Positions 52,801 to 55,800 of a stretch of DNA of 64,000 nt are shown in pieces. A program made the position numbers. Each line of letters opens with the position of its first letter. The first letter of the stretch is position 1. The stretch lies in the NCBI RefSeq assembly GCF_044324785.1, contig NZ_CP172127.1; one strand, written 5' to 3'. This DNA is from Escherichia coli. Its GTDB lineage: Bacteria; Pseudomonadota; Gammaproteobacteria; Enterobacterales; Enterobacteriaceae.

Positions 52801-55800
52801 AGTGCAGCTTATTCTCCACGTGCCAGTGGTTTCGGATTGCTGTGGCGAACTTCTCTGCGGTTAAATCAGCAGAACTGATATAATATCTGACCGTCATTTC
52901 TGGCTCTTTCTTTTGTTCTGCTATTATTGACCGAAAGGAGACTGCCACGCATAATTTCTTCAGACCTTTCCATTCAAACATGAAATCAATAAGTTCATCA
53001 AGGACATCGCAAACAATGTGAAGACGGATTTCTTCTCTGCCGTGACTCTTTTCACTAATTGCGTAACTGTCATGCTCTGGATTATTTAATTCTTTCAGCG
53101 GAAATTTTTCCTCGAAGGCTTTATTTAGCCGCCCCTGGTTTCCTTTTACAGCGAATAAATAATCACCGCCCTGTTTTTGTATCTTTCCTGCAATATCTTT
53201 CTGGCAACACATCACATCAGTTGTGATGATTTTTCCTTTAATATCCAGCATGTTAAGGAGTTCAGGGATAGCTGTAATCTCATTGGATTCCTCATCCGTC
53301 CTGATCTGTCCGATGACCAGACTGTGCATTGTTGAGAACGCACTAATGACATGAATCGCTCCCTTGCGGCGACTCTTGTCATAAGAGTGCCGGAGTGTTT
53401 TTCCATCAATTGCAATGACGCCTTTATCATCTGAAGAATGGCAGTCACGCATCCAGTTAATAAAGCACTCGTGAAATTTTGCAGGACTGATACAGGATAC
53501 AACTCTGGCAATGGTATCGTGAACAGGAATACCATTTTAAAAATCACCATATTGCTTCAAAAAATCGAGATGTGTTTCCCCAAAATCCTCTATATCTTCC
53601 CAACCTTCTGCACCCGAAATAACGGCGCAAATAGTCAACAGTAGAATATCCGATAATTTATGTTCCACTTTCCAGGCTTGTCTGTAATCGGGGATAATAG
53701 AAATATGTTCCATCAATTTTTTAAGTTACATTTTGTTCTCCTTAATTATGTAAGGAGTATTTGATCATGTATAAGCAATAAAAAACAGCTTTAGGTAATG
53801 AGGAATATCTCAATTTTTAAACATAAAATGCGAATTACTTAGTACAAAAAAGCAGCGTTACGTGATCTTTCCCTGGTCCCTGTCCCGGATTGTAGTACCG
53901 GTGCCAGTTGTAGTGCAGTTCGGATTCGTCGTCATACTGCTAGCCCGGATGGCGGAGCAGTTGCTCTAGTCACTCAGAATATTGTAATAGTGATAGAGTG
54001 CAGTGCCGGTTTCAATATCCTAACGCTGGTCTTTTGCCTGTATTAACTGATTTAGCTGGTTTGCTACATATTAATGCCTTCAGATTTTCCCTTTCCTTGT
54101 CTGTGATACTGTCGCAAACCCTACTAGCCCATTCTACTTCACTCTTCTCCAGGCATTCTATTTTCTTATTGCTCATTGTTCTAATGTTTGGTGTTGCATC
54201 TCCATTTAATAACATCCATGTTTCATTTTTCTTCATAAAACATCTTCCATTATGTTCAAAGATATTAGGTGTGAATATATTATCAGAATCCCATGTTACG
54301 ACTTGCTCGAGGGCTATATTATCTTGATAGTCCATGCCAGCATTATAATAATCACAAGATATAATTATCATGGAAATAATTATCACTAATATCTTCCCAA
54401 GCATTTCCATTTACTTTACCTCTTGAAATTCAAATGGGAATCCAGTGAAAGGACCTTTAGGCATAATATATCTTTGATATCCATAAAGCTCACCGAGCAC
54501 TTGTAGGCTTATAGGCGCATTTGTATTCATAGAGGGGTTGTTAAACCCGCACGCCTCAAAAATCATGTTCGTTCGGCTAAAACAATTATTTAAAACAGGA
54601 AGAGGCCCGAGGTTAATAGTTTTTAGTTTTTTATTAAGGTCTATTGCCTTATTCATCATACATTGTTCTTCTTCATCTGTTGTATCTATTATCCAAATCC
54701 AGGTATCTCTGCGGGGTTGCATCTTTTTAAAATAATCAGAGACAGAGGCTCCCATCTCATCCCCAGTTCCCGAACTCATTAATCCATATCGATTTGCCGC
54801 CGCAGCATGCCCAAAAGGATTATCAGGAACGGGGCCGTTACCTATTATCATAGTACTAAGCCCTAATGGATCAACGTGTTGCACTGGATTCAGCGGATAT
54901 TGGTACAGATTCCATCCCCCCTTCAGCCCAATCGGGTCCTGGATGATATACCGCCCCTGCAACGGATCGTAGTACCGGTGACGGTTATAATACAGCCCCG
55001 ACTCCTCATCGTGTTGCTGCCCTGGCAGACGGTACGGCTGGTGCAGGTGATGCGGTTTTTCCTCATTCAGCAGGTTTCCCCACTCATCATACTCCCCGCT
55101 CCACGCCGTATTGCCGTCTTCGCTGATGAGCGCCAGCGGCAGGCCCCGGTGGTCGCAGTGGTAAAGATGAACTTTTCGCGCCGGTGTGTATTCCGGCTCC
55201 ACCTGTCTGGCCAGTTGCTCTACCGTCAGCCCGCACTGCGCAAGCCACGCCCGGCTTTCACTGCTCACGCGGTCTGCCCGGATTTCCCCCTCCAGCCTGT
55301 CCAGCATCCTCACAAGTTCTGCCGGGAACACCACACCGTGTCCGTTCTCGCTCCCTTCCTGCTGGAGCTTCTCCGCCAGGCTCCGCCGCTGCGTTTTCTC
55401 CCGCTCGCCGTTGTCTGTTTCGATGCGGATGAGTGGTGTGAAGCTTCCCGGCTCGTATACCGTCTGGATACGTGTGCTGTCGGTCTGCACCGTCGTCAGG
55501 TGGTCGCCGTCCCAGCCGTACCACGTCACCTCCGGTTTACGCGACAGCGACATCCACCCCGTCAGGTCACGTACCCGCCGCCACACCCGTTTACCCGTCC
55601 GGCGGCCCAGCGGGTCGTAGAGGTAGCGGCTCTCCACCTGCGGCTCGCCATGCTGTATCCGCGTGTAGAACACCAGGCGGTGCTGGCTGTCGTAGTGGTA
55701 GTGGTGGGTCCGCTCGTCGTCCGTCCGTATCACACCCGCCGGGATGCGGTCCGTCTTCTCCGTCAGCCTGCCGTATTCATCGTGGCGGTAGACATAGTGC

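Follow-up and report, generated by a model that had tools for sequence, protein, structure and literature searches.

A stop-containing Rhs core-end fragment beside an H-repeat element in Escherichia coli is very probably the stub of a displaced Rhs tip

What is the short, stop-containing stretch that lies between an Rhs toxin locus and an H-repeat element in the chromosome of Escherichia coli, and where did it come from? The question is raised by a 64,000-nucleotide (nt) stretch of contig NZ_CP172127.1 (assembly GCF_044324785.1), called here the window, in whose numbering all positions are given. The genes of the locus are read on the minus strand, from high to low coordinates, in the order vgrG (60815-58707), rhs (58640-54411), an open reading frame (ORF) in the position of an immunity gene (54410-54012, here rhsI), the fragment in question and an insertion sequence (IS) of the ISAs1 family, followed by the backbone genes yafV, ivy and fadE. 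An earlier note on this DNA had placed a degenerate copy of Rhs core-extension sequence, containing stops, between the immunity gene and the H-repeat, and this position was borne out. We found that the fragment is very probably the 5' stub, now inert, of an orphan (dissociated) C-terminal tip of Rhs, with the history proposed below. It and the adjoining spacer are as follows.

53876-53969, minus strand: probable stub of an orphan (displaced) Rhs tip, comprising the last about 31 core codons, assigned from alignment statistics and near-identity to an annotated RHS pseudogene in two comparison loci (L002 and L003).
53970-54011, minus strand: spacer between the rhsI stop codon and recognisable core homology, in the same 136-bp block, co-linear with L002 6000-6135 at 98.5% identity.

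The similarity to the Rhs core end is well above chance. When 53876-54011 was compared by blastn with the self-masked 64-kb window, 53878-53955 aligned without gaps to 54955-55032 (54 of 78 nt, 69.2%, E = 1.4e-8), and the runner-up had an E value of 0.5, leaving a single significant match. At the protein level, blastx matched the stub to Rhs residues 1199-1229 (31 residues, 61% identity, E = 2.5e-10). Local alignment of the fragment with the whole rhs gene gave a score of 30, as against a mean of 11.5 (standard deviation 1.4) and a maximum of 17 in 200 shuffles, which places the real score 13.6 standard deviations above the mean. Direct alignment of 53860-53965 with 54940-55030 recovered the same register as blastn. 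The shortness of the region and its identity of only 69% might suggest a chance resemblance, but with these statistics, and with the same sequence found in annotated RHS pseudogenes elsewhere, we gave chance no credence.

Read in frame on the minus strand, the stub translates as LEQLLRHPG-stop-QYDDESELHYNWHRYYNPGQG. Two in-frame stops were confirmed, TGA at 53972-53970, within the spacer, and TAG at 53942-53940. The extent and nature of the fragment needed correction: of the interval 53860-53965 proposed at first, 53860-53875 is the terminal inverted repeat of the IS, the Rhs-derived part ends at 53876, and protein-level homology begins at about 53969, while homology to the resident core at the DNA level covers 53878-53955. 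The Rhs core homology stood, but it corresponds to the last about 30 codons of the conserved core before the PxxxxDPxGL motif and not to the variable core extension. The stub stops at ...RYYNPGQG, three codons short of DPxGL, and the adjoining base is the IS terminus. The PxxxxDPxGL core/tip motif is not present in the stub and is present in the full L002 and L003 copies. Similarly, the toxin domain and cognate immunity gene of the orphan are not in the window, which lacks 1112 bp relative to L002. The genes rhs and rhsI and the stub (53969-53876) share the minus strand, as is expected of an orphan tip.

From which rhs gene was the stub derived? It aligns to the end of the resident core in the same orientation, and it lies about 1 kb downstream, as would be seen if it were a local duplicate of the 3' core end of resident rhs decayed by mutation, the origin implied by the earlier note. 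However, the stub DNA was only 69% identical to the resident gene, compared with 76-79% for the core ends of other E. coli rhs genes. Its translation shared 25 of 34 residues with a core end of the P0017 type, including the diagnostic YYNPGQG, against 19 of 31 with the resident core, which has YYDPLQG. Besides, 53876-54011 matched, at 98.5% identity, the 5' end of an orphan Rhs tip that is annotated as a pseudogene in L002 and L003. This is an independent orphan of the Tox-WTIP type with its own toxin and immunity genes. These comparisons make a decayed local duplicate highly improbable, and on sequence relationships the stub appears to open a separate tip that was displaced and that came from a somewhat different core lineage, and not to be the decayed end of the neighboring gene.

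The matching orphan was found in many genomes. In a search of 5426 complete E. coli genomes, 553 had a match covering at least 80% of a 135-bp query (53877-54011, all but one base of the 136-bp block); sampled matches were 98.5-100% identical and, where annotated, formed part of a pseudogene with an internal stop labeled as RHS repeat-associated core domain-containing protein. The L002 and L003 loci lie between yncG/yncH and pptA, which is the RhsE site of K-12 and position 6 of Jackson et al. Their order is vgrG, rhs, a gene for the identical immunity protein WP_000425544.1, the 576-bp orphan tip and a 345-bp ORF (114 aa, putative immunity), beyond which there is an ISAs1 element in L002, and a group II intron in L003, where the IS is reduced to a 61-nt piece. 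In both loci the orphan runs on ...RYYNPGQGRYITQDPIGLAGG... through DPIGL into a Tox-WTIP domain (PF15654, E = 2e-13). The TAG stop is common to the stub and the full orphan, so the orphan was already dead before truncation. The closest protein relatives were other short orphan-type tips of E. coli and Salmonella, and a protein search for a full-length parent Rhs with a Tox-WTIP tip gave only short orphan-like or partial proteins of at most 333 aa. The same Tox-WTIP tip was also seen behind two different core-end stubs, one in MB06233 (L008, 5100-5230) and one in L002 (5990-6095) that reads as a stop followed by QYDDESELHYNWQRYYNPGQG, indicating that it has been joined to different core lineages.

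The similarity between the window and L002 extends upstream of the stub. In 200-nt bins, identity was 97-100% (mostly 99-100%) over 53876-54875, which runs through stub, immunity gene and toxin tip, whereas across the rhs core (54876-58640) it was mosaic, at 86-98%. A tip-immunity-stub block at about 99% identity next to more divergent cores indicates that the block was exchanged as a unit between position 1, where the locus of the window lies, and position 6. The pattern also indicates that the exchange of the tip module had its left boundary at the DPxGL motif. Such conservation of the surrounding module between strains leaves little time for decay in place, which again argues against a local duplicate. 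Jackson et al. (PMC2935791) report tips that are shared between loci, with some position 6 genes clustering with position 1, and also dissociated core-plus-tip fragments downstream of rhs. WP_000425544.1, a hypothetical protein, occupies the immunity position at the same chromosomal site in L001 (strain N3) and L006, and at the RhsE locus, behind a related rhs, in L002 and L003.

How did the stub lose the rest of its tip? The answer depends on the IS and the debris on its far side, which are listed below.

52585-53875, minus strand: ISEc1 (H-repeat, ISAs1 family), 1291 bp, defined by its ends, by copies elsewhere, by transposase domains and by the N3 annotation (ISAs1 family transposase, internal stop).
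52508-52584, strand not assigned: 77-nt end remnant of IS1414 (IS256 family), the other flank of ISEc1, 89-94% identical to IS1414/IS256-family transposase loci in many genomes.
52448-52507, minus strand: 60-nt relic of an older H-repeat, from its right end, adjoining yafV and 88% identical, as a direct repeat, to 52582-52641.

The terminal inverted repeats of ISEc1 read CAGGG(A/C)AAGAT(C/T)ACG. Comparison of the left ends of copies in other loci, where they follow unrelated flanks, defined the left terminus as CAGGGAAAGATCACG; the matching inverted repeat CAGGGCAAGATTACG lies at the opposite end (52585), and both ends agree with the termini in L002 and L004-L008. A 321-bp query over the region found ISAs1/H-repeat copies in 5331 genomes, with matches ending at 53875-53883. 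The transposase domains were recognized (DDE_Tnp_1, E = 6e-28; DDE_Tnp_1_assoc, E = 4e-20), and two GAA to TAA changes, called against intact ISEc1 copies in other loci, break the gene at 53728-53726 (codon 2) and at 53539-53537 (the codon after ...QYGDF). The element, described earlier as an ISAs1 remnant, is therefore full length, with 1291 bp and both inverted repeats, but dead, owing to the two nonsense mutations in its transposase gene. It was 98.8% identical to the N3 copy and 95-97% identical to the copies in other comparison loci, K-12 included. The region 52448-52584, between yafV and the full ISEc1 copy, consists of layered IS debris, and strain N3 does not have the 134 bp between the two H-repeat-end repeats.

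The junction itself is sharp. Co-linearity between the window and L002 spans 60019 down to 53876 and then ends, and IS homology restarts at the IS terminus. L002 4888-5999 (1112 bp), which holds the remainder of the orphan together with its putative immunity gene and a scrap of an IS66-family element, has no counterpart in the window. The stub/IS junction of the window was carried by 158 genomes. No 10-bp target-site duplication was found around the window copy of ISEc1, whose flanks are GGACAGGGAC and GCTTTATTAT. In other loci simple ISEc1 insertions gave perfect 10-bp duplications, namely GGTTTAACAA at the second ISEc1 copy of L006 (3334-4634), which sits inside the toxin-coding part of a window-type tip, and GCCCGACATG at L008 (5271-6556). 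These duplications imply past transposition of the element in E. coli, whereas the genome paper on strain W stated that transposition of H-rpt had not been observed (PMC3032704).

An IS bounded by two unrelated sequences and lacking a duplication suggests IS-IS recombination or an IS-mediated adjacent deletion rather than a simple insertion, and recombination between two H-repeat copies or IS-mediated adjacent deletion is most likely to have produced the junction. We also considered a simple insertion of ISEc1 into an intact orphan, by cut-and-paste or copy-in, with the remainder lost later through unrelated events. The junction falls exactly at the terminal nucleotide of the IS, the element is demonstrably mobile, and other H-repeat junctions in L006 and L007 (E. 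coli C) lie near the same hyperconserved Rhs region. However, besides the missing duplication, the opposite flank is an IS1414 remnant and not orphan sequence. A query made of the orphan remainder and the IS right end, designed for the reciprocal junction, detected no direct junction in any genome. Its single full-coverage match, L008, is arranged differently: there ISEc1 has inserted separately, 60 nt upstream of a different version of the tip, and is flanked by a 10-bp duplication. A simple insertion in this form is unlikely, although it overlaps with the best explanation, because an insertion and a subsequent recombination with another H-repeat copy would lead to the same end product.

Some other arrangements of the orphan were examined. 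P0001, a predicted 197-aa E. coli protein in which foreign sequence is fused to ...YNPGQGRY, was rejected as the product of an IS-mediated inversion: its foreign part lies in an IS66-family element (tnpA annotation, L009). It is an artefactual ORF running from that element into the orphan at ...VT/YNPGQGRY, and reflects the insertion of an IS66 element into this orphan in a different strain, one more IS hit within the same few codons. In L002, the stretch 4893-5100 between the orphan immunity ORF and the H-repeat is an end remnant of an IS66-family element.

Taken with the orphan in other genomes, the junction suggests the following order of events. An earlier tip would have comprised a short core-end piece, a DPIGL motif, a Tox-WTIP toxin domain and an immunity gene. 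It would have been pushed downstream when the present tip and immunity gene took their place at the end of rhs, by the C-terminal displacement described for Rhs loci (PMC2935791), a model that the layout fits, and the orphan would already have borne nonsense mutations when ISEc1 became involved. A later ISEc1/H-repeat event would then have removed about 1.1 kb 3' of codon ...NPGQG, including DPIGL, the toxin domain and the orphan immunity gene, and joined the IS terminus exactly to base 53876. Several points weigh against this reconstruction. A chimeric query of yafV and the full orphan (at least 80% coverage) found yafV, the IS and the full orphan together in 0 of 5426 genomes, although it could miss loci in which extra insertions widen the yafV-orphan gap beyond about 1.9 kb. 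Compared along its length with 12 other copies, the IS gave no clear signal of an internal recombination breakpoint. No intermediate with ISEc1 inserted in the orphan together with its duplication was found, and the order of events and the mechanism of deletion are inferred rather than demonstrated, whereas the homology, the point of truncation, the ends of the IS, the lack of a duplication and the distribution among genomes are direct observations. In addition, the window holds only about 31 codons of the orphan, and the suggested Tox-WTIP assignment derives wholly from near-identical sequence in other genomes. Finally, immunity functions are presumptive both for the 132-aa ORF of the window and for the 114-aa ORF of L002 and L003, given their position alone.

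Displacement of tips at this site has not been confined to the stub. L006 (strain JNE23-011, 1371-6900) represents the same chromosomal site with three ISEc1 copies, and the window-type stub/IS junction is kept, differing from that of the window by one base (the IS begins TAGGG). Here the window-type tip has been displaced by a tip of the dsORF-e4 type; one H-repeat decapitated the displaced tip at GGCGGTATATC (GRYIIQD...) and a further copy split it. This arrangement shows the displacement series in action. A speculative idea is that ISEc1/H-repeats are more than bystanders in Rhs loci and preferentially attack, or recombine at, the hyperconserved DNA of the Rhs core end. Three independent H-repeat/Rhs junctions lie within about 35 nt of this motif, at window 53876, at L006 copy 3 (5040-5050) and in E. 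coli C (L007, 5005-5020); the three came from a query biased towards such junctions, and other ISEc1 insertions have unrelated targets. The core-end DNA, CAGGG(G/A)CG(G/A)TATATCAC, loosely resembles the IS terminus CAGGGAAAGATCAC, a resemblance noticed post hoc. We regard such targeting as a speculation that is probably wrong. If true, the IS would repeatedly decapitate or truncate tips at the core end, and, together with the core, would supply the second homology arm by which tip-immunity modules move between Rhs loci.

Does the stub do anything today? It contains two stops and has neither a start codon nor a toxin or immunity partner. A promoter and terminator scan found no terminator-like site in the stub, its RNA folding was unremarkable (z = -1.0), and 52300-54500, searched permissively against Rfam, gave nothing relevant. 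No function is evident. One might propose that the stub is kept for use, either because it offers a homology arm for later tip switching or because it serves the rhs-rhsI operon as a terminator or RNA element, and its near-invariance in the sampled carriers would fit. But this conservation equals that of the neighboring module and reflects recent shared ancestry, and the scans offer nothing to an RNA-level role. RecA-dependent recombination in E. coli needs a minimum of about 25 nt of homology, and the longest exact match between the stub and the resident core was 12 nt. In Salmonella, recombination with the main rhs gene can restore orphan tips to activity (PMC3967940). This route is not available here, since 12 nt is too short for efficient homologous recombination, and there is no toxin or immunity gene behind the stub to reactivate. 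Retention for use is highly improbable, and the stub is best regarded as inert.

The remaining features of the locus are consistent with its assignment to a type VI secretion system (T6SS) island.

58707-60815, minus strand: vgrG (T6SS spike), directly upstream of rhs, which gives the context for Rhs as a T6SS effector locus.
54411-58640, minus strand: full-length rhs, 1409 aa, with DUF6531, 11 RHS repeats, an RHS core domain, a hyperconserved core end and a C-terminal tip of about 170 aa.
54012-54410, minus strand: presumptive Rhs immunity gene, 132 aa, an ORF with an N-terminal hydrophobic segment, its role assigned from position only.
51641-52420, plus strand: yafV, a backbone gene of the chromosome, at the boundary of the Rhs/T6SS island.

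The site is the end of the T6SS island and corresponds to rhs position 1 of Jackson et al. 2009, in the dnaQ-fadE interval (PMC2935791). Resident Rhs showed the Pfam profile PF05593 (11 copies), PF03527 and DUF6531, and it is linked to the upstream vgrG; its hyperconserved core-end DNA is at 54977-54924, with DPIGL at 54938-54924. Neither the resident tip (about 170 aa after DPIGL; 54411-54929) nor the 132-aa ORF matched a Pfam family. The hydrophobic N-terminus of this ORF ends ...IISC, possibly a lipoprotein signal. Within the window there was no further orphan tip/immunity pair, the stub being followed by the IS, the IS1414 scrap and yafV, and no other Rhs core-end motif.

The stub is of little importance on its own. 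As a scar it would record the history of an Rhs locus, in which one tip displaced another, an IS erased most of the old one, and a module was held in common with a second Rhs locus. It also has some value for annotation: about 160 complete E. coli genomes carry the junction, and the stub was unannotated in the one that was checked (N3). It should be flagged as a pseudogene fragment and not as an orphan toxin/immunity cassette.

Comparison with known systems places the fragment among the vestigial orphan-tip stubs long described for Rhs loci, a kind that is already known. Like orphan Rhs tips (Jackson et al. 2009, PMC2935791; Poole et al. 2011, PMC3150448; Koskiniemi et al. 2014, PMC3967940), it starts with core-end homology, has no start codon of its own and belongs to a tip found at a different Rhs locus in other strains. 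Unlike them, it has no DPxGL, no toxin domain and no immunity gene, and can neither serve as a silent cassette nor protect. Two defining features of an orphan tip, DPxGL and the pair of toxin and immunity gene, are missing, and the name orphan-tip remnant suits it best. Work of the Hill laboratory in the 1990s reportedly described, in RhsA, RhsB and RhsC of K-12, partial repeats of the core that lie downstream of the primary core and are followed by H-rpt elements. The layout of primary core, tip, small ORF, partial core repeat and one or more H-repeats is common to both cases and was confirmed for RhsC, where the order is rhsC, ybfB, a partial RHS fragment, ybfC and H-repeats; the classic arrangement of displaced tips and H-repeats claimed for the window was thus upheld. 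The K-12 partial repeats differ in being much longer, with their tips kept (1521 bp at RhsC), whereas that of the window has about 95 nt and the H-repeat abuts it directly. The IS resembles ISEc1/H-rpt in its length of 1291 bp, its terminal inverted repeats and its DDE_Tnp_1 and DDE_Tnp_1_assoc domains, and differs by two nonsense mutations, the absence of a target duplication, and flanks formed by an Rhs orphan and IS1414. Finally, orphan cdiA-CT/cdiI modules may be compared by analogy only, as they belong to another toxin delivery family; they too are displaced toxin-tip fragments arranged in arrays, share short stretches of homology with the main gene and often have IS elements among them.

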